In this document: in pieces, positions 1,236 through 63,343 of the stretch
Layout of the letters: each line of letters starts with the position of its first letter
How positions within the stretch are numbered: position 1 is the first letter of the stretch
Source of the DNA: an uncultured Alphaproteobacteria bacterium
GTDB lineage: Bacteria > Pseudomonadota > Alphaproteobacteria > Rickettsiales > JALZUV01
Length of the DNA stretch: 64,000 nt
NCBI GenBank assembly: GCA_963837025.1
Contig: CAWILT010000002.1
Span: forward strand, 422,554 to 486,553
Direction: 5' to 3'
The notes under the pieces: generated by a model
What the model saw: only the letters and a program-made list of their open reading frames with translations
The model's database searches: none
Told to the model about the DNA's origin: nothing
Position numbers and translations under genes: made by a program

Positions 1236-3146
1236 CTAAAGTGATTCATGTGGTTCAGCATGCGTAATTTTGCGCAGCTTATAAGCAATTGAAAATGATT
1301 TTGACATACTAAAAACAAAGAAAATTAACGGAATTATCATTATTGCCCCCATTATAATCAGCTCTACCGTTGATAATTCACTACTATCGATTTGCGAGAA
1401 TACATTTTGCAAAATGAAAGCCAGAAAAAAGCATAGTAGGGTCCAACTAATTCCAAAAAACATGAATAATTTTCCCGATTTTTTAAATATATTTGCCAGT
1501 TCACCATCGATTGCAGGTGTTGATTGATTGGCAATCTGCATTTTATCGGCCTGGCTTTGACGATGCAACGCTTCGCGCTGAGCGTTTAAGTCGCGTTCGC
1601 GTTTCTCAAGTTCATCCCGAATTTGATTAAGTTTTTGCATCTCACTTGAGAAACTCTCACGTTCCGATTGCATAAATTGTGCATGTGCATCATTTGAAAT
1701 ATCAAAAGCTTGCGAAAAATCTGTCGCATTAAGATTCACATGTGCCATCTGCGCATCTTTAAAATTGGCTTGCTCGACTTTAGCGCCAGCAAAATTAACT
1801 GCATTTAACTGACTTTCACGAAATATAGCATGGGTTAAATCACTGTTTGAAAAATCAGATTCATTAAGTTGTGCACCTCTAAAATTAGCATTATTAGCGA
1901 AACTTGATGTAAAATTTGAATGATTTAAAACCGCGTCGCGCGCATTGAATTTTTCTAATTTACTATGACTGAAATTTGTATTTTCGGCCTGAACACCTGA
2001 AAAATTTACCTCAGACATTTGTGCATTATCAAACTCAGCATGGGTGAATGTAGCATTGCTAAAATTAGCTAAATCAAGATAAGTATTACTGAATATTGGG
2101 CGCTCAAGAACCGCTTCACTGAAATCAACTTCATTAAGTTGCGCACCGGTAAAATTACATTGCACAATTTGCAAACCGCGCATAGAAGCACCCGATAAGC
2201 GCTGCTGCACAAAATTTACCCCCTGTAGATTTTCACGAAACACAGCGCGTCTACCTTCAGCGCCGGCACTATCCAGCCACTTTTGATGCTCCGCAATCAG
2301 GCTAGCTGTATTATCTTGCGGTGGTTGCGATTTGTGAAGCGCTTCATCTGCGAATGATTGGGTAACGATAAGTGGTGTTGCTTCAGGTGCTTGCGCTATC
2401 TCTTCAACTGCTTGGGGTGTGTTGGATGTTTGATTATCTAATGTAAATTCAACAGCTGGTGGTGCAATTTCAATTTTTGCAGCATTCGAATCGGTCAATG
2501 GTTGTTTGATTGTTTCATCATTGAGCGAAAGACCTTCAACGGCCGGCAATTTTTCATAAATCTTAGGGCTGCTAGTTTGTGATGATTCGGGTTCGCTATC
2601 GGCTTGCGTTTCTGATGCATTATCGGCGTTCGATGTTGCCTGTGATGAGGCTTTAAATGGCTCTTCTAAATCCATCATGAAAGGGTTAGAGCTACTTGAT
2701 GCAGGAGCTTGTGGTTGTGCTGCGGCAGGTGCAATTTCTTCATTAGAGCGTTGAAAGTTTGCGTCTACAATCGCATTGGATGCCTCATTATGCGAAACTT
2801 CAGGCGTATCTTGTGTTTCATTTGGATTCACCTGCTCAGAAGAGACGCGCGCTTCGGGTGTTACCAATTCAAATGCATCACTGCTAAATGTTTTTGCGCT
2901 AGCATCATGTGCAGTTTCAAAGGGTTTTAAATAACTATCTTTAGAAGGCAAAGGGCTTGCCATCATTGATTTTTGAATATCATCCGACAAATCGGTAGCC
3001 GCAGGTTGCTCTGGCAATTCGGCTTGTGCCTGCTGCGAAGAAGATGCATGTTGTTCGCTATCTTTCACCCTTTCATTTGTATTATTTTCATCAGCAGACT
3101 GCTGCGATGGGTTGGGATTTTGTTTACCAAATAAAGAATCGTTCAT
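1236..3146 (-). CDS. pentapeptide-repeat protein with a disordered acidic N-terminus, a coiled coil and a C-terminal 2-TM anchor
   Basis: About 190 aa of A(D/N)LxX-type repeats (NFTGAQLNEVDFSEAVL...ANFRGAQLNESDFSNSDLTHAIF...). The N-terminal ~290 aa are a low-complexity S/Q/E/A/P region. The C-terminus has FMFFGISWTLLCFFLAFIL and LIIMGAIMIIPLIFFVF helices. Confidence 0.8.
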   Translation of the reverse strand: MNDSLFGKQNPNPSQQSADENNTNERVKDSEQHASSSQQAQAELPEQPAATDLSDDIQKSMMASPLPSKDSYLKPFETAHDASAKTFSSDAFELVTPEARVSSEQVNPNETQDTPEVSHNEASNAIVDANFQRSNEEIAPAAAQPQAPASSSSNPFMMDLEEPFKASSQATSNADNASETQADSEPESSQTSSPKIYEKLPAVEGLSLNDETIKQPLTDSNAAKIEIAPPAVEFTLDNQTSNTPQAVEEIAQAPEATPLIVTQSFADEALHKSQPPQDNTASLIAEHQKWLDSAGAEGRRAVFRENLQGVNFVQQRLSGASMRGLQIVQCNFTGAQLNEVDFSEAVLERPIFSNTYLDLANFSNATFTHAEFDNAQMSEVNFSGVQAENTNFSHSKLEKFNARDAVLNHSNFTSSFANNANFRGAQLNESDFSNSDLTHAIFRESQLNAVNFAGAKVEQANFKDAQMAHVNLNATDFSQAFDISNDAHAQFMQSERESFSSEMQKLNQIRDELEKRERDLNAQREALHRQSQADKMQIANQSTPAIDGELANIFKKSGKLFMFFGISWTLLCFFLAFILQNVFSQIDSSELSTVELIIMGAIMIIPLIFFVFSMSKSFSIAYKLRKITHAEPHESL

Positions 3147-14175: not shown

Positions 14176-16182
14176 CTACTTTTGCCTGCTTTTTTTTGCG
14201 TGTGCTAAGGCATCGGCAGCGCGCTGGCGATAATCATTTTCTAACGTTTCAACCATCGTTAGATCATCAGCAGTAAATTGCCCAATGCCTTTTTCATCCA
14301 ATAATTTAGGGCCGTGTTCTGCAAATAAATTTTTCAAACTTTTATATTCATTATTTAGTTGTGATTTACGAATTAGATTATCGCATGAATCAATTTTAGT
14401 TTTTTTCTCATCAAGCATTTCATTAAATTTATAATAAAATAATGCGGCCATTGAAGGCGATGCATTATCGCGCACCGACTCAAATCGAATGGTGGTTTCT
14501 GCATCTACAATTTTATCATGTGCGACGCGCATAAAATCAGGGTGCGCGACAATTTTACGCGAGAAACTTTTAATATTTTCAAGCTGTATCATTGCTTCAT
14601 CGCTATATTTTTCGGGCGTTGAAAGCAACACATCAATGGTTCTATCTACGCGTTGCGAAAAAGCCTCGCGAGCCTTAACATCCTCAATTAAACTAGGATT
14701 TAGCTCGCCTCGTTCCCCCTTATAAAGCTCGCGCGCTAACTCGTAAAGCGGGTGGCAAAGTGGCTCTGCTTTAGAAACCGAAAGTGGATCTGATTTTGTT
14801 TCGCCAAATAATCCTATTCCCGGCTCATCCACACGCTTAGCGCTTGATATCCAGTTTAATGTGCCAGTGCCAACCATGCGCAACCCTTTATCGCCGGTTT
14901 TATCTCGCGTAATTAATGTATTTTCCCACCCTAGTTTAGGTTCAATCTCGGCTTTAACGCGATTATAAAAATACAAGGATGCCGCGTTTGAAAATACGGG
15001 ATTAATACGACTCAAATCACGCATTTTATTCCAGTTTGCGTCTTTCTCATCAAATAATTTATCAATCGTGCGCTTCCACGATTTAATGCCATTTTCATTG
15101 ATTTTAACGCCCGGAATATTCTCGCGATAAGCAGGGTTTGGTGCCACATCAATCATTTGCCAAAGCCGGTTGCGCACCTCCCGCGTTTTTAAAATCGCTG
15201 GATGATGCTTGCTGGCTAAGTTACGATAATTCTCACTTAAATCATTTACTTTTGGGAATGTTACTAAATTTAAATCAGCTAGAATGATATTTATTTGGCT
15301 ATCTTGTTTTGGTAGTCGGCTCTCAATACCATTACGAAATAATTCAATTTCCGATAAGCGGTTCTTTACCAATGATTCTAACGAATCAATCGCCACAATT
15401 TGGTCTGCATTATGCAGACCTTCATAATTTTGCGCTAAATCGTTCACTTTAATTTGTAAATCCATCAAATTAGATTGGTAATGATTGACGGCCGCAGTTT
15501 GTGCCTTACGCGATTCTTGAAATAACTGTAAACTAGCAGGCAATATAGCCGGATCTTCTAACGGTAGTTTTAAAACCCAGGTTTCAATTTCGCGGCGCAA
15601 ATCATAACTAGCTTGTGGCGATTTATCGCGCAAGGTGGCTTCAATGAAAGGCATTAATTCTGTCGCCATGCCTTTAGAAAAACCTTTCACCATATCCGCA
15701 TCTAACAACACACTAATGGTGTCATTTAATACAGCGACAGCGCTTTCATAATGGGTTATCTCTTCATTTTGATCTAACCGCATCAATAAACCTTCAGCAA
15801 GTGAAACGGCATTGGCGGTGGCGACGTTCACGCGAATTAACTCCTCTTGAACAATATTGCCATGATGTAAATAAAACTCTAAACCTTCAAAACTTTCACG
15901 CGTTTTACGATCAACAAATTGCGGGTTAAGTTGTAATTCATCTGGCTGTTGTTGTAGCCAATCCTCTAAGCGCGCATGTAAATGTTTAAACGGCGCGCTA
16001 TTATCTTTAATCGCAGCAAGCGTTTTGGGCTGCTTTAACTTATGAAAAAGCCCCAGCTCAGACCAAATCTCGTCATCTGGGCGAAATAACTCTTCACCTA
16101 TCACATCAAATTCCATCTGCACAGTATAGGAATAAAATGTTACTGATTGATGAAGATTTAAAAATTGAGTAGCATAAGGCAT
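14176..16182 (-). CDS. large hypothetical protein (about 650-680 aa); predicted soluble and helical, no recognisable domain
   Basis: Long uninterrupted ORF. The longest form starts at a TTG at 16212. ATG candidates are at 16182 (Met11) and 16116 (Met33). I saw no signal peptide, TM helix, P-loop or other familiar motif. Confidence 0.7.
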   Translation of the reverse strand: MPYATQFLNLHQSVTFYSYTVQMEFDVIGEELFRPDDEIWSELGLFHKLKQPKTLAAIKDNSAPFKHLHARLEDWLQQQPDELQLNPQFVDRKTRESFEGLEFYLHHGNIVQEELIRVNVATANAVSLAEGLLMRLDQNEEITHYESAVAVLNDTISVLLDADMVKGFSKGMATELMPFIEATLRDKSPQASYDLRREIETWVLKLPLEDPAILPASLQLFQESRKAQTAAVNHYQSNLMDLQIKVNDLAQNYEGLHNADQIVAIDSLESLVKNRLSEIELFRNGIESRLPKQDSQINIILADLNLVTFPKVNDLSENYRNLASKHHPAILKTREVRNRLWQMIDVAPNPAYRENIPGVKINENGIKSWKRTIDKLFDEKDANWNKMRDLSRINPVFSNAASLYFYNRVKAEIEPKLGWENTLITRDKTGDKGLRMVGTGTLNWISSAKRVDEPGIGLFGETKSDPLSVSKAEPLCHPLYELARELYKGERGELNPSLIEDVKAREAFSQRVDRTIDVLLSTPEKYSDEAMIQLENIKSFSRKIVAHPDFMRVAHDKIVDAETTIRFESVRDNASPSMAALFYYKFNEMLDEKKTKIDSCDNLIRKSQLNNEYKSLKNLFAEHGPKLLDEKGIGQFTADDLTMVETLENDYRQRAADALAHAKKSRQK

Positions 16183-16471
16183 GACCGAACTCGAAGTAAT
16201 TGATATAGCCAAAGATGCTTTATGGATATTGCTTATAGCGGGTGCTCCCGTGATGGCCTTGGCAATGGGAGTTGGCTTACTGATTGCGCTTTTTCAAGCA
16301 CTCACCCAAATTCAGGAAATGACCCTTACTTTTGTGCCTAAAATTATTGCTGTTTTTTTAGGTTTAATGGTTTTCTTGCCATTCATGTTTTCTACATTAG
16401 AGGATTTTACCATGCGCATGTTTGAACGTATGACCCAAGTGGGCCAGTTTGACAGCGATTTAGAGCAATAA
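16181..16471 (+). CDS. fliQ: flagellar export apparatus protein FliQ
   Basis: About 90 aa with two TM helices and the FliQ/EscS pattern (A...I..AGP....A...GL.I...QA.TQIQE.TL.FVPK). fliR follows. Confidence 0.85.
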   Translation: MTELEVIDIAKDALWILLIAGAPVMALAMGVGLLIALFQALTQIQEMTLTFVPKIIAVFLGLMVFLPFMFSTLEDFTMRMFERMTQVGQFDSDLEQ

Positions 16472-29101: not shown

Positions 29102-29564
29102 GAAATCAGATGGTCGGGTAACCGCGTTTAGTTTAACCACTAACCGAGGAAAGTCCGGGCTTCATGGAAAAAGGTGGTGGGTAACACCCACCGGAGGCAA
29201 CTCCAGAGACAGTGCCACAGAAAATAGGTGGCTATTTTTGTAGAAGGTTCAATACGAAGCCAGTAGGCCGAGTGAGCCATCAACCCGCGAAGCGGCGTTT
29301 TATTTGAGCGAAACTATGTCGCGCAGAGGAAACGAAAAATAGTCAAAGTGAAAAGGTGCGGTAAGAGCGCACCGCGCTTCTGGTAACAGAAGTGGCAGGG
29401 TAAACCTCACCTGAAGCAAAACCAAATAGGAATGATAATGGCGTTTTCCACGCTTTCATTCGGGTAGGTTGCTAAAGGTTGCGGGCAATCGCAACCGTAG
29501 ATGAATGGTTACCGCCTTGGCTAACCCCAAGGTACAGAACCCGGCTTATAGACCATCTGATTTC
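29102..29564 (+). ncRNA. rnpB: RNase P RNA (bacterial type A)
   Basis: Universal motifs are present: GAGGAAAGTCCGGGC, AGGGTGCGGTAAGAGCGCACC-like (aaaggtgcggtaagagcgcaccgcg) and ACAGAACCCGGCTTA. The 5' gaaatcagatggtc pairs with the 3' gaccatctgatttc to form P1. Confidence 0.92.
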
Positions 29565-43669: not shown

Positions 43670-44320
43670 TTATTTTGATAAGGTAGATTCGACCGCTGCG
43701 TTTTGCGTGGCTGCTGTAAATTTTGACCAGCTTTGCCCGTCCGCACGACTCGTAGGTTGCGTGTGCTCTGGTTTGGTTGGCGCAAGTTTATCCGCAGCAG
43801 TTTCAATGGGGGAAGGAATAGGCGACGGGACAGAGGATTTATCGCGGGCAATAATGTTGCTTTGCGCTTCGCGGCGATCTTCATCATTTTCGATGCGCTC
43901 TTGTTGTTCGCGCGTTAAATTAGTTTGGATGTTAGCCAAGGCGCTATCGGTTGGTGCAAGGCCAGGATTAACAGGTATATCTTTTGTAGGGGCAATTTGG
44001 CTTCCCTGCATTCCACGCGTGGCACCTTTACCCATTTCAAATTCATCTGCGTAATGCCTTGCTGAAAGTTTGGTCTGACCTGAGCCTACTTTAAGTTTAT
44101 ACTCCTCACGCGTGCTATCGCGTTCAATATAAGAAAAAACAGCGCCTGCCGCTGATGCAGCCCCAGCAATGATGCCTGCAACACCACCAATAATTAATAC
44201 AGAATAAACAGCTACTGCGGCCAGAGCAACAAAGGCAGCACCCCAAAAAATCGCTTCATAACGCAACATGGTGCGTTCGCGGCCTTCGGTTTCTATTTCA
44301 TGTTCTACAGAATGACTCAT
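43670..44320 (-). CDS. hypothetical membrane protein with one Gly/Ala-rich TM hairpin
   Basis: The hydrophobic hairpin [43 protein letters not shown] is followed by a polar, P/S/T-rich tail. The antisense ORF looks like noise. Confidence 0.6.
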
Positions 44321-44410
44321 GATGTCACTATAGGGTATGAATTTTACAGTTTGATGACAACGCGTAACTTTGCTAAAAGAGCGCTAACGATAATTACGAT
44401 AAGAGCAACC

Positions 44411-47129: not shown

Positions 47130-48845
47130 TTGAACGAAAACGAACAGCTTGAATTTGATCCACACGCGATAGATCACGGCAGCGCATCCAAAAAGATGAG
47201 CTGGAGCGCCTTTAAAGGGCACATCCGTGGCATCGTGCGTGGGTTGATTGTTGGCTGCACCATCGGTGCGGTAGTCGGCTTAGGCGTGTGGGGTTTGGGT
47301 GCAATTGGGCTTATCGGGGCTTTAACCGCAACTGCCGCACAAACTGCCGCCGTTTTTTCCGTAACTGCAGGCGTCCTTGCCAGTAGCTTGATGGGTCGTA
47401 TCGGTAATGCCGCAGGTAACGCTGCAGGTCAACTCGCTGAACAAGAGCTACGCTTGCGCTACCCCGAGCTGCCTGAGCTTTCGCCTGATGCTCCACAACC
47501 TGGCTACGGTCACCATCTTGAGATTCCAGCCGATCGCGATAAGGGAAAATTCTTCCACCCGCGCGTTGGCATTGCAGGCGCTATCATGGGCGGGCTATTT
47601 GGTGGTATTGCAAGTATTGCTGGTTTAGGTTCAATCATTGCCATGCACACTACCGCAGTTGTAGCCTTACCAGTACTTGCTCCGGTCATATTAGGCGCAG
47701 TGATGGGCAGTTCGTTTGGGGTAAATCGCAGCGTATTTAAAACCATCTTCAACTTCACTGACAATCTGATGCACGGAAAAGTGGGAGGCCCCACTCAAGA
47801 TGATCTTGCTAAAAACCGCGAGCTATACCGCTTGCAAGGCGACCCCGGGCCCGAACCCGTTATCACCAACTTGCAAAGGCAAGAAGAATTCTACCGTTTA
47901 GAAAACGGCTATTTCAAAAAAGCGTTCGAAGCGGGCTTTGCTGGCAACGGGCGCGGTTTGCTAGGTGGACTTGTTATCGGCGGCGGTATGGGCATATTAC
48001 TAGGCGGCGTGGCTGTTGGCGCGCTTGCATTATTTGGTGGCTTTGCCATTACCGGTGCTGGTGCGATGGCTATCATTGCGGGCATATCTGCTTTCACCAT
48101 GCATAAATCAGCGGATTTCTTTTCGGAAGCTATGTTTGAAGGCTCAAGCCATGATCACGTACACGAAGTCTATCACGAGCGGGTTCGGTCTTTGCGCAAA
48201 GGCGAAAATATCAGTTTCGATCAAGCCGAGATGAATATTGTTGAGCGCCGCCAATCTGACCCTGAATTAACGCCGGCCGCTTCACAATCGAAAGATGCGT
48301 TTAAGCCGCGTGTTGCATTGGTATTAGGGGCTGTTGGTGCTGCCATAGGCGTTGGTTTAACCCCAGTTATAGGCCCTATAGCTGGGGCTTTAGGGATTTC
48401 AGCGGGTAAAATATCATTAGGATTAAGCGCTTCAACTTTTGGTATGGCGGGCGCGTCGTTTGGTATTGGTCCCAAAATTACGGAGAAACTGCATAGTTTA
48501 TCAGACGCCATTTTTCACGGCGCATTCAACCCCGGTGTTGACCATCCAGATATTAAGGTCGAGGGCAGAATCCCCCTTATGTCGCCAAATTCTGATTTAG
48601 CAGAACATTTCAGCGTGCATCTTAAAAAATCAATCCCACAGATTGATAGTAACCGCGATGTGTCAGCTATCTATAAAGCACCCGCTGAACCACAATCCAC
48701 AGTCCAATCCGAAACACCTCTAGTTACGCCAGAAGTTAAACCAGAGCGTAAGCCCGCATTTACCGATATTATCAATAAAGGTGCGCGCAATTTAGAACAG
48801 CAAGTGTCGCAATCTATCGCTGCGCCGTCAGGGTTGGATCGCTAG
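47130..48845 (+). CDS. hypothetical polytopic membrane protein with four repeated glycine-zipper TM-hairpin modules
   Basis: TTG start with an AGGAG Shine-Dalgarno 5 nt upstream. It has four Gly/Ala-rich bilobed hydrophobic segments. Three of them end in a similar amphipathic motif (FTDNLMHG / FFSEAMFEG / LSDAIFHG). Confidence 0.75.
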   Translation: MNENEQLEFDPHAIDHGSASKKMSWSAFKGHIRGIVRGLIVGCTIGAVVGLGVWGLGAIGLIGALTATAAQTAAVFSVTAGVLASSLMGRIGNAAGNAAGQLAEQELRLRYPELPELSPDAPQPGYGHHLEIPADRDKGKFFHPRVGIAGAIMGGLFGGIASIAGLGSIIAMHTTAVVALPVLAPVILGAVMGSSFGVNRSVFKTIFNFTDNLMHGKVGGPTQDDLAKNRELYRLQGDPGPEPVITNLQRQEEFYRLENGYFKKAFEAGFAGNGRGLLGGLVIGGGMGILLGGVAVGALALFGGFAITGAGAMAIIAGISAFTMHKSADFFSEAMFEGSSHDHVHEVYHERVRSLRKGENISFDQAEMNIVERRQSDPELTPAASQSKDAFKPRVALVLGAVGAAIGVGLTPVIGPIAGALGISAGKISLGLSASTFGMAGASFGIGPKITEKLHSLSDAIFHGAFNPGVDHPDIKVEGRIPLMSPNSDLAEHFSVHLKKSIPQIDSNRDVSAIYKAPAEPQSTVQSETPLVTPEVKPERKPAFTDIINKGARNLEQQVSQSIAAPSGLDR

Positions 48846-53101: not shown

Positions 53102-53176
53102 TGGTGCCACCTACAAGAATCGAACTTGTGACCTCTTCATTACCAATGAAGCGCTCTACCCCTGAGCTAAGGCGGC
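53102..53176 (-). tRNA. tRNA-Thr (anticodon GGT), CCA encoded
   Basis: The reverse complement folds into a cloverleaf: acceptor GCCGCCT/AGGTGGC, D arm GCTC/GAGC, anticodon stem CTTCA/TGAAG with loop TTGGTAA, and T arm ACAAG-TTCGATT-CTTGT. Confidence 0.9.
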
Positions 53177-57120: not shown

Positions 57121-57828
57121 ATGCACATTATGGCTCAGCACTATACCCATGCACGCGATGCATTTAACGGATTACTCCATGATAATATTACCCTTATGTC
57201 GGGCGGCTTTGGCCTATGCGGCATCGCCGAAAATGCCATTGAGCAAATACGCGATTCGGGTATCAAAAACCTCACCGTAATCAGCAATAATTGCGGCGTG
57301 GACGATTTTGGACTTGGCCTTTTACTGCGAAATAAGCAAATTAAAAAGATGATTTCATCCTATGTGGGCGAGAATAAAGAGTTTGAACGTCAATATCTTA
57401 GCGGCGAATTAGAATTGGAATTTAACCCGCAAGGCACATTAGCCGAACGTATCCGCGCGGGCGGCGCAGGCATTCCCGCTTTTTATACGAAAACGGGCGT
57501 AGGCACTATCGTTGCCGAAGGCAAAGAAACCCGCGAATTTGACGGCGAAACCTATGTGATGGAACGCGCCCTAACGGCCGATATCGCCATTGTCAAAGCA
57601 TGGAAAGCTGATAGTGCCGGCAATGTAATTTTTCGCAAAACGGCACGCAATTTTAACCCCCTTATGGCTAAAGCCGCTAAAGTGAGTGTGGTGGAAGTAG
57701 AAGAGATTGTGCCCGCTGGCCAGCTTGATGCCGATGCTATTCATTTGCCCAGCATCTATGTGCAGCGTTTTTTCCAAGGTGAAAATTACGAAAAACGCAT
57801 CGAATTTCGCACCGTTACCGCTGCCTAA
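57121..57828 (+). CDS. scoA: 3-oxoacid CoA-transferase subunit A
   Basis: Typical subunit A sequence ([16 protein letters not shown]....GLG.LL...[46 protein letters not shown]). Confidence 0.9.
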
Positions 57829-57831
57829 ATA

Positions 57832-57872
57832 AACACAAAAACAAAGGCCGCCTCCCAACGGGAGACGACCTT
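57832..57872 (-). terminator. cassette 1 terminator (rho-independent, minus-strand orientation)
   Basis: Minus-strand RNA AAGGUCGUCUCCC-GUU-GGGAGGCGGCCUU forms a 13-bp stem including 2 G-U pairs, followed by UGUUUUUGUG. On the plus strand the same positions would be C-A mismatches. Confidence 0.8.
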
Positions 57873-57897
57873 GCTATAAACACCCTACACTAAATTT

Positions 57898-58296
57898 TTA
57901 CGAGTTTGTCAGACTCGTAAACTCTTCTTCAAGCTGCTTAAGCACCTCAAAGTCGCTTTCTTCGCGACTTTGATTGATGAGTGCCAAGGCATCAAGTAGT
58001 GCCACAAAAACTTCAGCCTCCTCAAGAGAAAAAAGTTTTTCGGTGGTTTTATTTTTAGCAACAGATTTTTCAATCTTAATTACTAAAATTTGCCCACCGA
58101 TGTTACGCGCATTGATGACAATTTCGCTGTTAGAAGTTTTGACATGCACCCAAGCGCTTGCCAAAATCGCTTCAAACGCAATGATTTCACCAGTAATGGC
58201 AGTGCTTGCGTTCGTTTTGCTGCGAATAAAAAGCGTATTATCGTTACGCGATACGGAAAGGCGCTGGATGGCCTCTCGAATGGATTTGCTCAACAT
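57898..58296 (-). CDS. cassette 1 ORF, hypothetical protein (132 aa)
   Basis: The ORF is bracketed by a conserved promoter/leader and a terminator. It has no Shine-Dalgarno sequence and I recognise no family. Confidence 0.7.
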   Translation of the reverse strand: MLSKSIREAIQRLSVSRNDNTLFIRSKTNASTAITGEIIAFEAILASAWVHVKTSNSEIVINARNIGGQILVIKIEKSVAKNKTTEKLFSLEEAEVFVALLDALALINQSREESDFEVLKQLEEEFTSLTNS

Positions 58297-58453
58297 TTTT
58301 TATGTTTTAGCGGTGAAAGAATGCACCAGAATGGTGCGAGAAAATTTCTATCCTTATCAAAGATTACAGAGTCAAAATTAGCCCGCGCTAATGTGAATGT
58401 GTGACGGCAAAATTGCTGTGTAACCTAAAAAAAGAGGTAAGAAATATTCGCTC

Positions 58454-58487
58454 ACTATACCCCCAAATCATGACAGTTTGATGACAT
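58454..58487 (-). promoter_or_regulatory. Pho-box-type promoter of cassette 1
   Basis: Minus strand reads ATGTCAT-CAAA-CTGTCAT-gatttggggg-TATAGT: two direct TGTCAT repeats 11 bp apart, 10 nt upstream of a -10 hexamer. Confidence 0.65.
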
Positions 58488-58502
58488 AGGCGCTGAAAAT
58501 TG

Positions 58503-58540
58503 AATAAAAATAAAGGCCGCCTCCCAACGGGAGACGACCT
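58503..58540 (-). terminator. cassette 2 terminator
   Basis: Same hairpin as cassette 1 (aggccgcctccc-aac-gggagacgacct on plus), followed on the minus strand by UUAUUUUUAUU. Confidence 0.8.
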
Positions 58541-58565
58541 AAATTTAATGCAGCAAAGCTTGCTG

Positions 58566-59102
58566 TTACCAAGCGTTTCCTTTGATTCGCTTTATCACAA
58601 ACTTTGAGGAGCGTGCTCCACAAAATTCGTTGATGTGGCTGTCATCGGCCTCGGGTGTCAACAGAGACATCTGCTGCAGCAATTGTCGTAGCCAAGTGGT
58701 CTTGGCGGCGGCCTGCTGCGTCAGCTTGGTGGAATATTCCACGCGCGGATCTTTTCGCTCTTTGGAGGCGTTACACTCTTTGAGCGCGCGAAACAACACC
58801 CAAACGAAGTCATCGTAATGCTTCGGGGTAATGTTGCGCACAAAGTGAGTGCCCTCGCCTTCTAAGCAAAAGCATATGTGCTCATCTTTAGGACAAAAGG
58901 TGATTTTCATCACCTTATCCCAATTGCTTCGAATGGTGAGGAAGCCATGCGCTGGCTTGTAATCCTCATCATGCGAAATAACACCGTATAGGCGCCAGTT
59001 GGCAAGCTTTGAGTCTACCTTAATCCCGTCCCCATTATCGGTTACGGTTGCGCTTACTTGGGCATACTTTGCCAAGTCGCGCAGTAATTGGAAATCGATC
59101 AT
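58566..59102 (-). CDS. cassette 2 ORF, hypothetical protein (178 aa from the ATG at 59102; the ORF track extends to a GTG at 59156)
   Basis: The ATG at 59102 gives an N-terminus (MIDFQLLRDLAKYAQ) that aligns with the cassette 5 N-terminus (MVDEAQLRELFKNAW). It also gives a leader of about 150 nt, like the other cassettes. Confidence 0.7.
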   Translation of the reverse strand: MIDFQLLRDLAKYAQVSATVTDNGDGIKVDSKLANWRLYGVISHDEDYKPAHGFLTIRSNWDKVMKITFCPKDEHICFCLEGEGTHFVRNITPKHYDDFVWVLFRALKECNASKERKDPRVEYSTKLTQQAAAKTTWLRQLLQQMSLLTPEADDSHINEFCGARSSKFVIKRIKGNAW

Positions 59103-59259
59103 GTGATTCGATTTAAAAAGTGACAATCTCCAAAACGGAAAATTGTAATTTCTCACCTCCCATTCTACATCACCTTAATAAAAAGATGAGCGTCAAGCGT
59201 GTGAATTTAAATGACGGCAAAATGCTGTAAAACCAAAATTGAGGTAAGAAATATGCAAT

Positions 59260-59293
59260 CACTATAATGCGCGTTGATGACAGTTTCATGACA
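59260..59293 (-). promoter_or_regulatory. Pho-box-type promoter of cassette 2
   Basis: Minus strand reads CTGTCAT-GAAA-CTGTCAT-caacgcgcat-TATAGT. Confidence 0.65.
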
Positions 59294-59300
59294 GCACCAC

Positions 59301-59337
59301 ATAAAAGCAAAGGCCGCCCCCCAACGGGAGACGGCCT
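59301..59337 (-). terminator. cassette 3 terminator
   Basis: Hairpin aaggccgcccccc-aac-gggagacggcctt on the plus strand, which forms G-U pairs only in the minus-strand RNA. The U-tract is weaker (CUUUUAU). Confidence 0.65.
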
Positions 59338-59345
59338 TGCAAAAT

Positions 59346-59768
59346 TTACCGAAAGAGCAGATGTAGCCCGTTTCGCTGTAACGCATTGGCGAGCAGAAGC
59401 CCCTCCAACACCACCTCACGATCATATGATCCGAGATGATTTTGGTTGAATTCCACTTCCGCAATCCAGCGACCAAGTCGGTGGCAGAAGTTGGCTGTTG
59501 GTGCGGTCACCTTGAGCTTAGCTTTAGCATCCGCCGCAAGTAATGCGGGGTTTTCGGATACCTGTAGCTCAGCCACAAGGGTTGTCTCGTCCTTCTCACG
59601 CACCTGAAACCAAACGCCTTGCAGCGTATTGTCAGGTGCGTAAGTGGCGCGTCCGTGAACTTGCGACTTTCTGCCACCAACCACTTTAAAAGTGATAGTG
59701 GATTGTGTCGCTTCATCTAGCCTTTCGGCGATGATCCCATTAAGGAGCATCTTTACCTTATCTTCCAT
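59346..59768 (-). CDS. cassette 3 ORF, hypothetical protein (140 aa)
   Basis: The ORF is bracketed by a conserved promoter/leader and a terminator. It has no Shine-Dalgarno sequence and I recognise no family. Confidence 0.7.
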   Translation of the reverse strand: MEDKVKMLLNGIIAERLDEATQSTITFKVVGGRKSQVHGRATYAPDNTLQGVWFQVREKDETTLVAELQVSENPALLAADAKAKLKVTAPTANFCHRLGRWIAEVEFNQNHLGSYDREVVLEGLLLANALQRNGLHLLFR

Positions 59769-59911
59769 GCTGGAGATTTTTTAGGTGATTTAAAAAAAAG
59801 GGTGAATTTTTCTACCAGTACAGTTTCGCGACCGTTAAGGAGCGTCTTTGAAATGAGGGACGTCGCATCCAAAAAGCGGCGTAAAACTATAAAAGTAAGA
59901 AATATGCCATC

Positions 59912-59945
59912 ACTATAACCACACATGATGACAGTTTAATGACAA
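59912..59945 (-). promoter_or_regulatory. Pho-box-type promoter of cassette 3
   Basis: Minus strand reads TTGTCAT-TAAA-CTGTCAT-catgtgtggt-TATAGT. Confidence 0.65.
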
Positions 59946-59979
59946 AAAAAGCCGCTCTCCCCAAAAGGAAGAACGGCTT
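59945..59979 (-). terminator. cassette 4 terminator
   Basis: Hairpin aagccgctctccc...ggaagaacggctt. On the minus strand it is followed by a U7 run that continues directly into the next Pho box. Confidence 0.75.
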
Positions 59980-60000
59980 AATGTTTGGCACTGCTAGGCG

Positions 60001-60411
60001 CTACGGCAGCGACAGAATATAAAGCGTGCCAACAGGAATTTCTTCCTTTAACACCGCTTTAATTTCCCGCTCGCATGCCCGCAAAATGCTAGCAAAATTA
60101 TTTCGGCTGAGCATCTGCTCATCAACCGGAAGGCTAACGATGCGGTTGGCACTTCGCGCCTTCGCGGTGATGATCAACCCAGCCGTCGTTTCGGTGGCAT
60201 CAACGGTCACCGTCAAATGCGTGTAACCCGGCTGCTCAATCACCAAACGAATTTTGTTCGTTTGGTTTTCGCAAAAGTCAGCTGTTCCCGTCATCGTGTA
60301 GTCACGGTGCTTGCTAATGCATTGCATTAGGTTAGGCATCGTTTTGCGATACGTGCCCTTATTCTTATAGGTCGCTTGCAACAGCAGCTCCCTAATTACT
60401 GAAAAAGTCAT
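60001..60411 (-). CDS. cassette 4 ORF, hypothetical protein (136 aa)
   Basis: The ORF is bracketed by a conserved promoter/leader and a terminator. It has no Shine-Dalgarno sequence and I recognise no family. Confidence 0.7.
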   Translation of the reverse strand: MTFSVIRELLLQATYKNKGTYRKTMPNLMQCISKHRDYTMTGTADFCENQTNKIRLVIEQPGYTHLTVTVDATETTAGLIITAKARSANRIVSLPVDEQMLSRNNFASILRACEREIKAVLKEEIPVGTLYILSLP

Positions 60412-60564
60412 GCTTATATATTTTAAGCATTAAAGAAATCAACATACCAAGCGCGGCATGAGGGTAGCAGTTACCACAAATCAACCCATTTGCATGAGGT
60501 GAATAAATAGAGGTGACAGCGAAAAAAGCTGTAAAACCAAAAGAAAGGTAAAAGATACCCGCAG

Positions 60565-60598
60565 ACTATAGCGCCCAATCATGACAGTTTGATGACAA
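60565..60598 (-). promoter_or_regulatory. Pho-box-type promoter of cassette 4
   Basis: Minus strand reads TTGTCAT-CAAA-CTGTCAT-gattgggcgc-TATAGT. Confidence 0.65.
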
Positions 60599-60631
60599 AA
60601 AAAGTCGCCCTCCCCGCAAGGGAAGGACGAC
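60598..60631 (-). terminator. cassette 5 terminator
   Basis: Hairpin agtcgccctcccc-gcaa-ggggaaggacgact-like, a 13-bp stem with 2 G-U pairs in the minus-strand RNA, followed by a U7 run that continues into the next Pho box. Confidence 0.75.
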
Positions 60632-60646
60632 TGAGTTAAAACCTAT

Positions 60647-61099
60647 TCACCAAGGTCCAAGCGCATAGATGCTTGGGGCATCCAGCACGTTTACATGCGC
60701 ATAGTGATGCTGCATTAAACGTGATAGCTTCGCGCCTTGCTCTAGTAGCTCTGGCGAGAAACTTCCTAAGCAATCAGCTTCCAAAATCGCCTTGCGGATT
60801 AGGCTTGAAAGCTGGCTAACCTCACTTTTATATAAGTAAAGTTCGCACTTCGCAAAGGCTCCCGTAAAGAAACATTTGTGAATTTCCTTGGTCGAAGGCA
60901 GCATCACGAAACGTAACTCTCGTTGCTTTCCTTCGAAAATGGAAATGTCGAAAAAGGAGACTAGCTCATTTTCGAACACAGCCAGTACTTCCAGTCTCCA
61001 TGAGAGGTAGCTGGACTTGAAGATGACAAGATTGCCACCTTCAACCGGTGAATGCCACGCGTTTTTGAACAGTTCGCGCAACTGAGCTTCATCAACCAT
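60647..61099 (-). CDS. cassette 5 ORF, hypothetical protein (150 aa)
   Basis: The ORF lies between a conserved promoter/leader and a terminator. It shows weak N-terminal and central similarity to the cassette 2 protein. Confidence 0.7.
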   Translation of the reverse strand: MVDEAQLRELFKNAWHSPVEGGNLVIFKSSYLSWRLEVLAVFENELVSFFDISIFEGKQRELRFVMLPSTKEIHKCFFTGAFAKCELYLYKSEVSQLSSLIRKAILEADCLGSFSPELLEQGAKLSRLMQHHYAHVNVLDAPSIYALGPW

Positions 61100-61257
61100 T
61101 ATTTTTAGGTATAGAAGTGATACAACATACCAGAAATGGCATGAGGGCTATCTTAACTTATACAATCAAGCACACAAGCGAAGTTGGCGTTGAGTGAAAA
61201 TGTGACTGCGAAAAACGCGGTGAAACCTGAAAAAATAAAGGTAAGAAATACTCAAAC

Positions 61258-61291
61258 ACTATAACTGCATTTGATGACAGTTTTATGACAG
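61258..61291 (-). promoter_or_regulatory. Pho-box-type promoter of cassette 5 (overlaps the stop codon of the upstream methyltransferase gene)
   Basis: Minus strand reads CTGTCAT-AAAA-CTGTCAT-caaatgcagt-TATAGT. The TAA stop of the 686-aa ORF (61283-61285) lies inside the box. Confidence 0.65.
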
Positions 61292-63343
61292 CGGCTTTTT
61301 TAACCAAAATTGATACATGGATTTAAACGTATCGGGGTTTTGTTGTTCATAAGCATGCCATTTTATAAGGTAATCAGGATGATTGGGCGGGGGTAATGTG
61401 GCCTCAAACGCTTCCAACTCTGCGCGGTGCATGAGGTTGATGCCACAAAATTCCAATCCTAAATCACTCACAATTTTCCCAATTTGCGGCCACGTGAATT
61501 GATGTTCCTGAACATGAAAAATTAAATCACGACATTCCGAAAGCGAAAAGAAATCGGTTGCAGCATAGAGATCGGAAATGATGGGAGTCAGCGCATTATC
61601 GGCACCCGTTTGTTGCCGCTGAAATTCATAATTTCGTTGCATCAATTCGCGGCGATAGTGGCGCAACGCATCATCCGAATCGCCTAAGTTGCGCGCTTTA
61701 ATCTCCTCGCGCGCGAGCGTCACACTGCGTCGCGCCATTTGGCTGTAAAGGCCAATGCGCATCATACCACCTGGTTTTAAAATATCGGTAAGCACCTTCC
61801 AGCCGGCGATGGGGTCGCGCATGTGATGCAGCACGCCCACGCTTTCAATCATATCAAATGTGCGGTTAAGTGCGAGTAATTTTAAAATATCGGCCTGCAT
61901 AAATGTGAGTTGGTCACAGCCATATTGCTCGGCCTTGCGTTGTGCGTAAGCCAAACTGGAAAGGCTAATATCAACCGCTAATAACGCACTTTTACAAAGC
62001 GATGCGGCAAGCATGATGGGGTGCTGCCCCGTGCCGCAACCCGCAATCAACACCTCGCCCTGTTTAGGTAAAGTTGAGCTAATAATTTCAGGCTTAACAC
62101 CAAAACGCGCCACATATTCAGGCAGTGAAATGGGCGTGTAATCGGGCACCTCATTCCAACGCGGGTAGGGCGCGGATTCATATTGTTCGCGCACTTTTTG
62201 GCTGGTGGCATCGTCAATTTCATCCAAGCGCGGCAAGCTCAATTTGCGCTTTTGTTCATCTTGCGGGTTATGGCATTGCTGTTCAATAATGCGTTTTAAA
62301 ATAGCATCATCTGGCTGCCATTGTGCTAGCTGCGGCGCGCAATCTTCCTGCGCTAAAGGGGTATAACTGCCCAATAATGTGAGTGCATCATTATCAATTT
62401 TAGGTAAGCTTGCCACCAGTTTTACGCGCAAAGGTTTTAATGCTGCAGCTTCTTCTGCCTCCGTAAAAAATACATATTCATTATTAAATCCGAGTGAGCA
62501 AAGCGCCCATTGCAAAGGTTGAAACGGCGCACGAGCAGCGGCATCACATTCCAGCAATAAATGCCGGCGAATTTGGGTGAGCAATAGCTCTAATATTGGC
62601 TGAGTAATCGAATCGCGATGCATCAGCGGCAGCAAAAGCGATTGTTGAAATTGCTGCAAAAAGCCATCCTGTTTAATCAGCTTTCGCATGGCGATAATCA
62701 GGTCGCTATAATGCTCAATTGATGCCAGCTTATTGCATTCTACCATCCACGGCGCAGCGTGTTGATGGCGAATAATTGCCGCGCGAATGCCGTTCATAAG
62801 ACCGGTTTTTAATGCCTCTTTTAGCACCGGTTCCAATTTTAATTCCACCTCATAAAATGCGTCCATTAAATAGGTAACGCGTTTATAATTTTCCCATACG
62901 GCTTCTTCCTGCGGCGAAATTAAAAACATTTGCACTGCAAAGGGCAGGGCTGCTTTTTTATCACCAGCAATTAAATGCAAACGACACGCGCGAGCAAAAG
63001 GCGGCTGCCAATCCGGCTTTAGCGTGGCAGCGCGTGTGTAAGATTGTAGCGCATCTTTGTTCGCGCCTGAATATTCTTGCGCTAAACCCAAATGATAATG
63101 CGCCGATTCATGTCGCATATTTAACATTACAGCCTGTTGAAATCGCGCAATCGCATCAGGGTAATCTTGCAACTGTAGCGCCGCAAGTGCTAAGCCAAAA
63201 TAAACACCAAATTCCGTATGACCCTGCGCCAATAAATGCGCAAATAATTCGCGCGCTTCGCCAAATTTGCCGTGCTGTAACCAACTATCAGCTTGCTTAA
63301 ATTGCTTTTGAAATTGTTTTGTCTGATTCATAAATACGAGCAT
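61283..63343 (-). CDS. TPR-repeat protein fused to a class I SAM-dependent methyltransferase
   Basis: N-terminal TPR-like repeats (about 34-aa A/L/Y pattern). The C-terminus has motif I VLIAGCGTGQ, post-I LAVDIS, and DMIESVGVLHHM...LKPGG. An alternative start is at 63331. Confidence 0.8.
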   Translation of the reverse strand: MLVFMNQTKQFQKQFKQADSWLQHGKFGEARELFAHLLAQGHTEFGVYFGLALAALQLQDYPDAIARFQQAVMLNMRHESAHYHLGLAQEYSGANKDALQSYTRAATLKPDWQPPFARACRLHLIAGDKKAALPFAVQMFLISPQEEAVWENYKRVTYLMDAFYEVELKLEPVLKEALKTGLMNGIRAAIIRHQHAAPWMVECNKLASIEHYSDLIIAMRKLIKQDGFLQQFQQSLLLPLMHRDSITQPILELLLTQIRRHLLLECDAAARAPFQPLQWALCSLGFNNEYVFFTEAEEAAALKPLRVKLVASLPKIDNDALTLLGSYTPLAQEDCAPQLAQWQPDDAILKRIIEQQCHNPQDEQKRKLSLPRLDEIDDATSQKVREQYESAPYPRWNEVPDYTPISLPEYVARFGVKPEIISSTLPKQGEVLIAGCGTGQHPIMLAASLCKSALLAVDISLSSLAYAQRKAEQYGCDQLTFMQADILKLLALNRTFDMIESVGVLHHMRDPIAGWKVLTDILKPGGMMRIGLYSQMARRSVTLAREEIKARNLGDSDDALRHYRRELMQRNYEFQRQQTGADNALTPIISDLYAATDFFSLSECRDLIFHVQEHQFTWPQIGKIVSDLGLEFCGINLMHRAELEAFEATLPPPNHPDYLIKWHAYEQQNPDTFKSMYQFWLKKPLS

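Follow-up and report, generated by a model that had tools for sequence, protein, structure and literature searches.

The window, as the whole analysed stretch of 64,000 nucleotides is called herein, covers positions 422,554 to 486,553 of contig CAWILT010000002.1 (assembly GCA_963837025.1) from an uncultured bacterium of the Alphaproteobacteria. It contains an array of five small genes, g5 to g1, each of which stands behind its own copy of a Pho box, the binding site of the response regulator PhoB. The five units are co-oriented on the minus strand, extend from 61291 to 57844, and are spaced 651 to 807 bp apart. Each is composed of a promoter module, an untranslated leader of ~150 nt, an open reading frame (ORF), and a Rho-independent terminator, the ORF being the longest one that reads in the direction of the promoter (150, 136, 140, 178, and 132 amino acids from g5 to g1). 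Judged by its sequence, the array probably represents five monocistronic units that are each switched on by a phosphorylated PhoB-type response regulator. The parts are listed below from cassette 5 to cassette 1; block A denotes a conserved 12-nt block near the start of the leader, hairpin II a hairpin close to the start codon, and TM a transmembrane segment.

61258-61291, minus strand: cassette 5 promoter with Pho box CTGTCATAAAACTGTCAT (61274-61291), 10-nt spacer, and -10 hexamer TATAGT (61258-61263)
61100-61257, minus strand: cassette 5 leader, ~150 nt, with block A TATTTCTTACCT (61239-61250), conserved part (61202-61256), and hairpin II (61126-61143)
60647-61099, minus strand: g5, orphan ORF of 150 amino acids, pI 5.9, no TM segment or signal peptide
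60603-60632, minus strand: g5 intrinsic terminator, 13-bp stem and T tract that runs directly into the next Pho box
60565-60598, minus strand: cassette 4 promoter with Pho box TTGTCATCAAACTGTCAT, N10, and TATAGT
60412-60564, minus strand: cassette 4 leader with block A TATCTTTTACCT (60546-60557), conserved part (60513-60562), and hairpin II (60443-60460)
60001-60411, minus strand: g4, orphan ORF of 136 amino acids, pI 9.1
59949-59979, minus strand: g4 intrinsic terminator, 14-bp stem
59912-59945, minus strand: cassette 3 promoter with Pho box TTGTCATTAAACTGTCAT, N10, and TATAGT
59769-59911, minus strand: cassette 3 leader with block A TATTTCTTACTT (59893-59904), conserved part (59863-59911), and only a weak A/U hairpin (59777-59798)
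59346-59768, minus strand: g3, orphan ORF of 140 amino acids
59310-59338, minus strand: g3 intrinsic terminator, 13-bp stem, 83-90% identical to the terminators of g1 and g2
59261-59294, minus strand: cassette 2 promoter with Pho box CTGTCATGAAACTGTCAT, N10, and TATAGT
59103-59260, minus strand: cassette 2 leader with block A (59242-59253), the 12-bp complement of block A (59148-59160), and hairpin II (59123-59146)
58566-59102, minus strand: g2, orphan ORF of 178 amino acids from the ATG, or 196 amino acids if started at the GTG at 59156
58514-58540, minus strand: g2 intrinsic terminator, 12-bp stem
58454-58487, minus strand: cassette 1 promoter with Pho box ATGTCATCAAACTGTCAT, N10, and TATAGT
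58297-58453, minus strand: cassette 1 leader with block A (58435-58446), conserved part (58401-58453), and hairpin II (58323-58337)
57898-58296, minus strand: g1, orphan ORF of 132 amino acids, pI 5.3
57844-57872, minus strand: g1 intrinsic terminator, 13-bp stem, end of the array

The promoter module and its occurrence in other genomes

The module TGTCATnAAACTGTCAT-N10-TATAGT is present in five copies on the minus strand without a mismatch at any specified base (33-nt pattern at 58454-58486, 59261-59293, 59912-59944, 60565-60597, and 61258-61290), and 100 dinucleotide-preserving shuffles yielded no match to it. TGTCAT-N5-TGTCAT is exact in all five copies, with a distance of 11 bp from start to start, and the second TGTCAT ends precisely 10 nt ahead of TATAGT. 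At the 17-nt spacing of a -35 hexamer, the sequence reads AT(N)AAA; only the copy of cassette 2 scores as a weak sigma-70-like promoter, reaching 9/12 in the sigma-70 scan. The sequence-only reading had described near-identical modules on the minus strand before ORFs of 132-178 amino acids, with this repeat spacing, this distance to the -10 hexamer, and no -35 hexamer, and all of it was found exactly as quoted.

The classical Pho-box consensus of Escherichia coli is CTGTCATA(A/T)A(A/T)CTGTCA(C/T). The box of copy 5 is identical to this consensus at 18/18 positions, and the other copies show one to two mismatches. Like the classical Pho-regulon promoters (pstS, phoA, phoB, and phoE of E. coli; pstS, phoC, and phoX of Sinorhizobium meliloti), the modules of the array contain two TGTCAT repeats with an 11-bp period that replace the -35 hexamer, and 10 bp separate the end of the box from a TATAAT-like -10 hexamer. 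In contrast to them, five near-consensus copies stand in a row and drive orphans instead of uptake or scavenging genes, and the 5' untranslated regions (UTRs) are long (~150 nt) and, where the transcript is predicted to begin, carry the conserved block of 12 nt. The PhoB site has been described as two direct repeats of 11 bp (PMC3978041); in S. meliloti, itself an alphaproteobacterium, PhoB boxes overlap the -35 position, and transcription start sites have been mapped 22-25 nt downstream of them (PMC3616915).

Conservation among the five copies is a mosaic. Mean pairwise identity amounts to 28% in the 10 nt upstream of the box, 95% in the 17-nt Pho box, 43% in the 10-nt spacer, 100% in the -10 hexamer, and 46% in the 7 nt that follow it. 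Within the leader, it rises to 90% in the 12-nt block A (TATTTCTTACCT), drops to 46% in the linker between the leader blocks, and is 68% in block B (GGTTTTACAGC-TTTT-GCnGTCAC) compared with 35% in the remaining leader. A spacer this divergent between a box and a -10 hexamer this constant indicates that purifying selection, rather than recent duplication, maintains the boxes.

Other genomes were scanned for the exact 33-nt pattern, which has 22 specified bases and for which less than one chance match is expected by our own estimate. The pattern was found at 42 other loci, 26 of them in 185,579 species-representative genomes and 16 in a metagenome collection. It lies directly upstream of phoB at six loci (L002, L005, L014, L037, L040, and L044), whose phoB products are 59-60% identical to E. 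coli PhoB. Furthermore, it lies just after pstB-phoU and before a porin gene in L004, L008, and L042, near pstB in L023, and ahead of a gene for a PstS-like protein in L007. It also repeatedly precedes DUF2610 and other small genes in metagenome-assembled genomes (MAGs) labelled 'Rickettsiales', 'Azospirillum', and Alphaproteobacteria. Its occurrence before phoB, pst, and PstS-like genes indicates that the pattern is a genuine and widely used PhoB-type promoter. This, together with the full consensus match of copy 5, bears out the earlier identification of the motif as a Pho box.

None of the 42 loci is a second array, each of them holding exactly one exact copy. From the box to the first ORF found, the distance at these loci is mostly ~20-60 nt compared with the ~150-nt leaders of the array. 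A search of the JGI metagenomes for promoter plus leader gave 0 matches, and a literature search retrieved no described array of Pho-box genes. The statement that no comparable array is known agrees with these searches.

Two groups of other loci deserve mention in their own right. Genes of the DUF2610 family (~90 amino acids, starting MKRFTVPCDFNGVK...) stand behind the exact Pho-box/-10 pattern in seven alphaproteobacterial MAGs (L010, L011, L016, L019, L022, L024, and L025), and this uncharacterised family is probably a conserved member of the Pho regulon in those lineages. In a Colwellia locus (L009, 2955-3179), the same promoter precedes only a very basic ORF of 49 amino acids (MKRTLKNNQRRKQLNRQHHK...), and the unit could encode a PhoB-dependent small protein or a small RNA (sRNA). 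Promoters similar to that of the Colwellia locus are found in L012, L013, L018, L026, and several metagenome loci.

The conserved leader, the orphan proteins, and the terminators

The conserved 5' leader, which the sequence-only reading had missed, is the real unexplained feature of the array. In all five copies, block A begins exactly 8 nt past the last base of the -10 hexamer, and the base immediately 5' of it, 7 nt past the -10 hexamer, is a purine. This purine is the expected start site, and the mRNAs are predicted to begin with R-UAUUUCUUACCU. A hidden Markov model (HMM) of the leader only recovers the five copies with E = 1e-7 to 2e-11. It has no further match in the window and in 49 other loci, including all other Pho-box promoters, which resemble the module in the box and -10 part only. 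A sixth, degenerate Pho-box promoter of the window, TGTCATCAAACTGTAAA-N10-TATAGT at 44327-44359 on the minus strand, has TGTAAA as its second half-site and stands 7 nt ahead of the ATG of a membrane orphan ORF of 216 amino acids (43670-44320, minus strand; one strong hydrophobic segment) upstream of addA. Because of this short distance, the mRNA from the sixth box is probably leaderless; the leader-only HMM finds no block A behind it, and the Pho box and block A are therefore separable.

All five leaders are more stable than their dinucleotide shuffles (folding z of -1.5, -2.0, -2.3, -3.3, and -3.9). In the minimum free energy folds of cassettes 1-4, block A pairs with a segment 54-64 nt before the AUG and thereby closes a large domain; in cassette 4, a C in block A and its G partner are shifted together. 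Hairpin II, a CC-loop-(U)GG structure with differing outer pairs, is located 21-31 nt before the AUG in cassettes 1, 2, 4, and 5, and is followed in two copies by a T-rich run that was flagged by the terminator scan. At the same position, cassette 3 has an A/U hairpin only. Rfam 15 gives no gathering-level match in the array. From these features, the leader is likely a shared post-initiation control element, which could act as an RNA structure, as the target of an sRNA or a protein, as a 5' stabiliser, or as a DNA operator overlapping +1.

Some candidate features of the leader were tried and rejected. Long-range pairing of block A as a feature of the family was dropped, being significant in cassette 2 only. 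On inspection, no start codon or frame of an upstream ORF or leader peptide is conserved across the copies, and a presumed third Pho half-site (GTCAC) in block B varies among them in its distance from the box. The missing Shine-Dalgarno sequence is no special feature either, since most genes of the window are also without one.

A coding signal is present in each of the five ORFs: the codon log-likelihood is positive in frame and negative in the five other frames. The values of g1-g5 (0.02-0.31) lie below the housekeeping mean of 0.40 +/- 0.08. In g2-g5, the G+C content at third codon positions (GC3) is 0.51-0.59 compared with 0.42 in housekeeping genes, and the fit to codon usage is weaker; g1 and the ORF of 216 amino acids behind the sixth box look native (GC3 of 0.43 and 0.36). 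The proteins have masses of 14.6-20.6 kDa and pI values of 5.3-9.1. They contain no hydrophobic segment of TM strength and no signal-peptide-like hydrophobic N terminus, and they appear soluble.

Searches of Pfam, NCBIfam, PADLOC, PHROGs, and PDB sequences gave no match below the cut-offs for g1-g5, in line with the earlier statement that the proteins belong to no recognisable family. A word-index search with g5 among 5.8 billion cluster representatives retrieved only g5 itself, and a profile of the five proteins, run with full HMMER against 1.84 billion representatives, only the five themselves. By these searches, g1-g5 are true orphans. Foldseek against the PDB likewise returned no match with E <= 0.001.

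The five proteins are mutually unalignable, and in leave-one-out HMM searches, g4 is marginal (5/2000 shuffles score as well) and the other four fail. A blastp comparison of g2 and g5 gives 26% identity over the first 80 amino acids (E = 0.046 in a database of six proteins). AlphaFold (AF2) models are of low confidence, with a predicted local distance difference test score of 50 for g5 (five-sequence alignment) and 58 for g1 (alone). The g5 model consists of a helix (residues 4-12), six strands, and two helices (91-111 and 116-133); the g1 model of a helix (4-11), six strands, and two helices (91-110 and 113-130), so that the order and borders of the elements are near those of g5. In these models, the proteins may share a common fold, which makes old tandem duplication the most economical reading and g1-g5 possibly ancient paralogs. 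The description of the genes as unrelated may go too far, since they could be very old paralogs; the evidence just given for this is weak, and homology between the copies is not demonstrable by sequence.

Every ORF is followed by an intrinsic terminator, which consists of a G+C-rich stem of 12-14 bp and a T tract. G-U pairs appear in the stems only if the minus strand is read, in agreement with a function as RNA in that orientation. The units are autonomous, as had been proposed: they are monocistronic, and each has its own promoter and terminator. In sequence, the terminators are of two types. Those of g1, g2, and g3 (57833-57874, 58502-58543, and 59299-59340) are 83-90% identical over 42 nt, and those of g4 and g5 (59949-59979 and 60603-60632) are similar to each other. 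This may be a trace of duplication in two waves or of flanks that underwent gene conversion. In E-value mode, Rfam returned only weak matches to the Burkholderia sRNA BcKCsr2 (24-25 bits compared with a gathering threshold of 40), located over the 3' ends and terminators of g4 and g5 at 59944-60039 and 60597-60719 on the minus strand; most likely they are a mere resemblance of terminator hairpins.

Proposed regulation and alternative explanations

The reading that a PhoB-type regulator controls the five units is well supported by comparative evidence and remains a prediction for this organism. The steps of the proposed mechanism are modelled on the paradigm of E. coli and Sinorhizobium. Upon phosphate limitation, a dimer of phosphorylated PhoB would bind head-to-tail to the two TGTCAT repeats at the -35 position and bring the sigma-70 RNA polymerase to the TATAGT -10 hexamer. 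Transcription would start in all five copies at the purine 7 nt downstream of the -10 hexamer. Each mRNA would open with the conserved UAUUUCUUACCU, continue with a structured 5' UTR of ~150 nt, encode one soluble protein of 15-21 kDa, and end at a strong intrinsic terminator. Since every unit has such a terminator of its own, the five would be insulated from one another. The leader blocks most likely add a second layer of control common to all five transcripts, for which a shared RNA-binding factor or sRNA, a 5' stabilising stem, and an operator overlapping +1 are candidates. The array most likely arose from old tandem duplications of one unit, after which purifying selection would have kept the promoter, the leader blocks, and the terminator while the coding sequences and the free spacers diverged to saturation.

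The array compares in this respect with tandem arrays of fast-diverging paralogs such as arrays of orphan immunity genes or effectors, which likewise consist of co-oriented small genes of similar size (here 132-178 amino acids). The possible common layout of helix, six strands, and two helices and the weak N-terminal similarity of g2 and g5 extend the likeness. It differs from them in that each copy has a full promoter, leader, and terminator instead of being part of an operon, and in the lack of homology demonstrable by sequence. A bolder proposal, to which we attach little probability, is that promoter, leader, and terminator form a frame that serves as an expression chassis dedicated to one lineage-specific family of fast-evolving proteins. 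In it, a canonical Pho box would work together with a 5'-UTR element of a new class, made up of a structured domain and of block A at the very start of the mRNA. Phosphate starvation and a second signal would then both be required, as in an AND gate, for the expression of a battery of orphans that might serve, e.g., as a starvation-induced arsenal for defence, competition, or dormancy.

Several observations weigh against the PhoB-type reading and the common origin of its parts. Genes for PhoB, PhoR, Pst, or PhoU are not found in the 64-kb window. The closest orthologs of the methyltransferase encoded upstream of the array (53% identity, on a 347-kb JGI contig, and 49% identity) are followed by no array, Pho-box-like site, or leader motif, so that comparison with these nearest relatives lends support to neither the leader nor the proteins. 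The long-range pairing of block A is better than in shuffles only in cassette 2 (12 contiguous pairs, -17 kcal/mol), and the sequences do not suffice to demonstrate a common ancestor of the ORFs, the leave-one-out HMM failing for 4/5.

The boxes might instead be read by another regulator of the OmpR/PhoB family—a PhoB paralog or a protein of converged specificity—that responds to a signal other than phosphate, e.g., a host, a surface, or stress. Such a private regulon would resemble the PmrA-regulated Icm/Dot effector genes of Legionella pneumophila and Coxiella burnetii, in which many unrelated lineage-specific genes carry a tandem-repeat box at a fixed distance from the -10 hexamer and no -35 hexamer. 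Read as a co-regulated battery of lineage-specific genes, the array would work alike. The PmrA half-site is, however, of the TTAAT type, and the genes under PmrA control are scattered over the genome, whereas here TGTCAT half-sites, a tandem arrangement, and matching leaders and terminators are found; no secretion system or effector signal was identified, and the organism looks free-living. That the box occurs in 64 kb only at the five sites and in one degenerate copy, none of them adjoining a phosphate gene, is in favour of a different regulator, as is a cargo of lineage-specific orphans in place of phosphate scavenging; the extra conserved leader, too, suggests a specialised control. Yet in half-site, in phasing (11 bp), and in distance to the -10 hexamer (10 bp), the boxes agree exactly with genuine phoB and pst promoters of other Proteobacteria, and, to our knowledge, the other well-studied OmpR-family regulators have different half-sites. 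On balance, this explanation is unlikely. It is quite unlikely, too, that the transcribed leader is the decisive element, i.e., a new cis-regulatory RNA (riboswitch-like, an attenuator, or a target of an sRNA or a protein) for which the Pho box merely supplies transcription. The conservation of blocks A and B over the remaining leader, the negative folding z of 5/5 leaders, hairpin II in 4/5 with a T-rich run behind two of them, and the distal partner of block A in 4/5 with the co-shifted C and G of cassette 4 speak for such an RNA. However, covariation would have to be read from five sequences without orthologs, the significance of the block A pairing is confined to one cassette, cassette 3 is without hairpin II, and no Rfam family matches. 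Moreover, a DNA operator or an effect of the initial transcribed region would account equally well for block A, which lies at +2 to +13.

Two further explanations concern the origin of the array. Instead of a native locus that was duplicated, it could be a mobile or cassette-type structure, either integron-like or based on a repeated intergenic element able to take up foreign ORFs. The flanks, with promoter and leader on the 5' side and the terminator on the 3' side, are conserved around unalignable ORFs, which points in this direction, as do the atypical codon usage and GC3 of g2-g5. Integron gene-cassette arrays indeed share with it small, unrelated, co-oriented ORFs parted by repeated hairpin elements. 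However, integron cassettes are typically promoterless, whereas each unit here has its own, putatively regulated promoter, and the array has Rho-independent terminators rather than attC sites: G+C-rich hairpins of 27-31 nt that contain G-U pairs if the transcribed strand is read and that have T tracts. The 13.7-kb contig copy, which takes in ~3 kb on the upstream side of the array and 7 kb on the downstream side, has no integrase (intI included) or transposase among its called genes, and none of 72,556 plasmids and 50,697 phages is similar at the DNA level. The lack of an integrase in that contig copy, the terminator nature of the hairpins, and the lack of plasmid or phage similarity therefore make an integron-like or mobile origin unlikely; as an account of the whole array, to which the equal GC content of array (44.8%) and window (44.6%) adds a further objection, we consider it very improbable. 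The tandem, co-oriented arrangement at 651-807 bp would also suit inert relics of a recent tandem duplication, with genes that are constitutive or silent. Here, the neutral positions are saturated (the spacer, the variable leader, and the unalignable proteins), the functional hexamers are 95-100% identical in a mosaic that is the signature of purifying selection, and the ORFs still carry a coding signal. Free positions at saturation next to invariant hexamers therefore exclude this idea, to which we give next to no credence.

The preferred reading thus remains that of five PhoB-type units. To call the array a novel system, as the sequence-only reading did, overstates the case: in its regulatory logic, it follows the ordinary Pho regulon, with a textbook mechanism of control. 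New are the cargo genes and the leader, so far in one genome only, which also limits the reach of the finding. If the reading is true, the array is a clean natural case in which promoter, leader, and terminator are preserved as a unit while the coding sequence evolves past recognition, and five orphan proteins plus one unknown 5'-UTR element become part of the response to phosphate starvation in an alphaproteobacterial lineage about which little is known. As the boxes are of the E. coli type, the regulatory claim is cheaply testable in a heterologous host, and the leader would be a compact model of post-initiation control atop a promoter governed by a two-component system.

Genomic context and neighbouring features

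The array is flanked by two larger genes, the upstream one coding for a protein with tetratricopeptide repeats (TPR) and an S-adenosylmethionine (SAM)-dependent methyltransferase domain.

61283-63343: TPR/SAM-methyltransferase gene, 686 amino acids, upstream of the array
57121-57828, plus strand: CoA-transferase subunit gene, convergent with the last terminator of the array

The stop codon of the methyltransferase gene is overlapped by the Pho box of cassette 5 (61283-61291). No terminator is found between this gene and the cassette 5 promoter, so that transcription of the methyltransferase gene might continue into cassette 5. A toxin, secretion, or defence gene was not found near the array.

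The window proteins that were checked are all singletons at 90% identity and belong to a single NCBI contig of 876,849 bp. The nearest named relatives by RpsA are ~65% identical MAGs ('Rickettsiales bacterium' and 'Alphaproteobacteria bacterium'), and this genome contains an alpha-type addA and a protein of the DUF2336/SpbR family. In closer relatives (86-89% RpsA identity), the rpsA neighbourhoods contain no array, box, or leader motif. They do contain chemotaxis and flagellar genes, which suggests that the lineage is free-living and motile.

Elsewhere in the window, a pentapeptide-repeat protein of 636 amino acids (1236-3146, minus strand) shows weak similarity to the secreted-effector families PipB2, SopA, and IcmE, and several large ORFs, among them 14176-16212 and 47130-48845, are without any family. 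A class A RNase P RNA (29106-29564, plus strand; 316 bits) and two tRNA genes (53105-53176 and 774-847, both minus strand) are ordinary housekeeping RNAs and confirm the chromosomal context.

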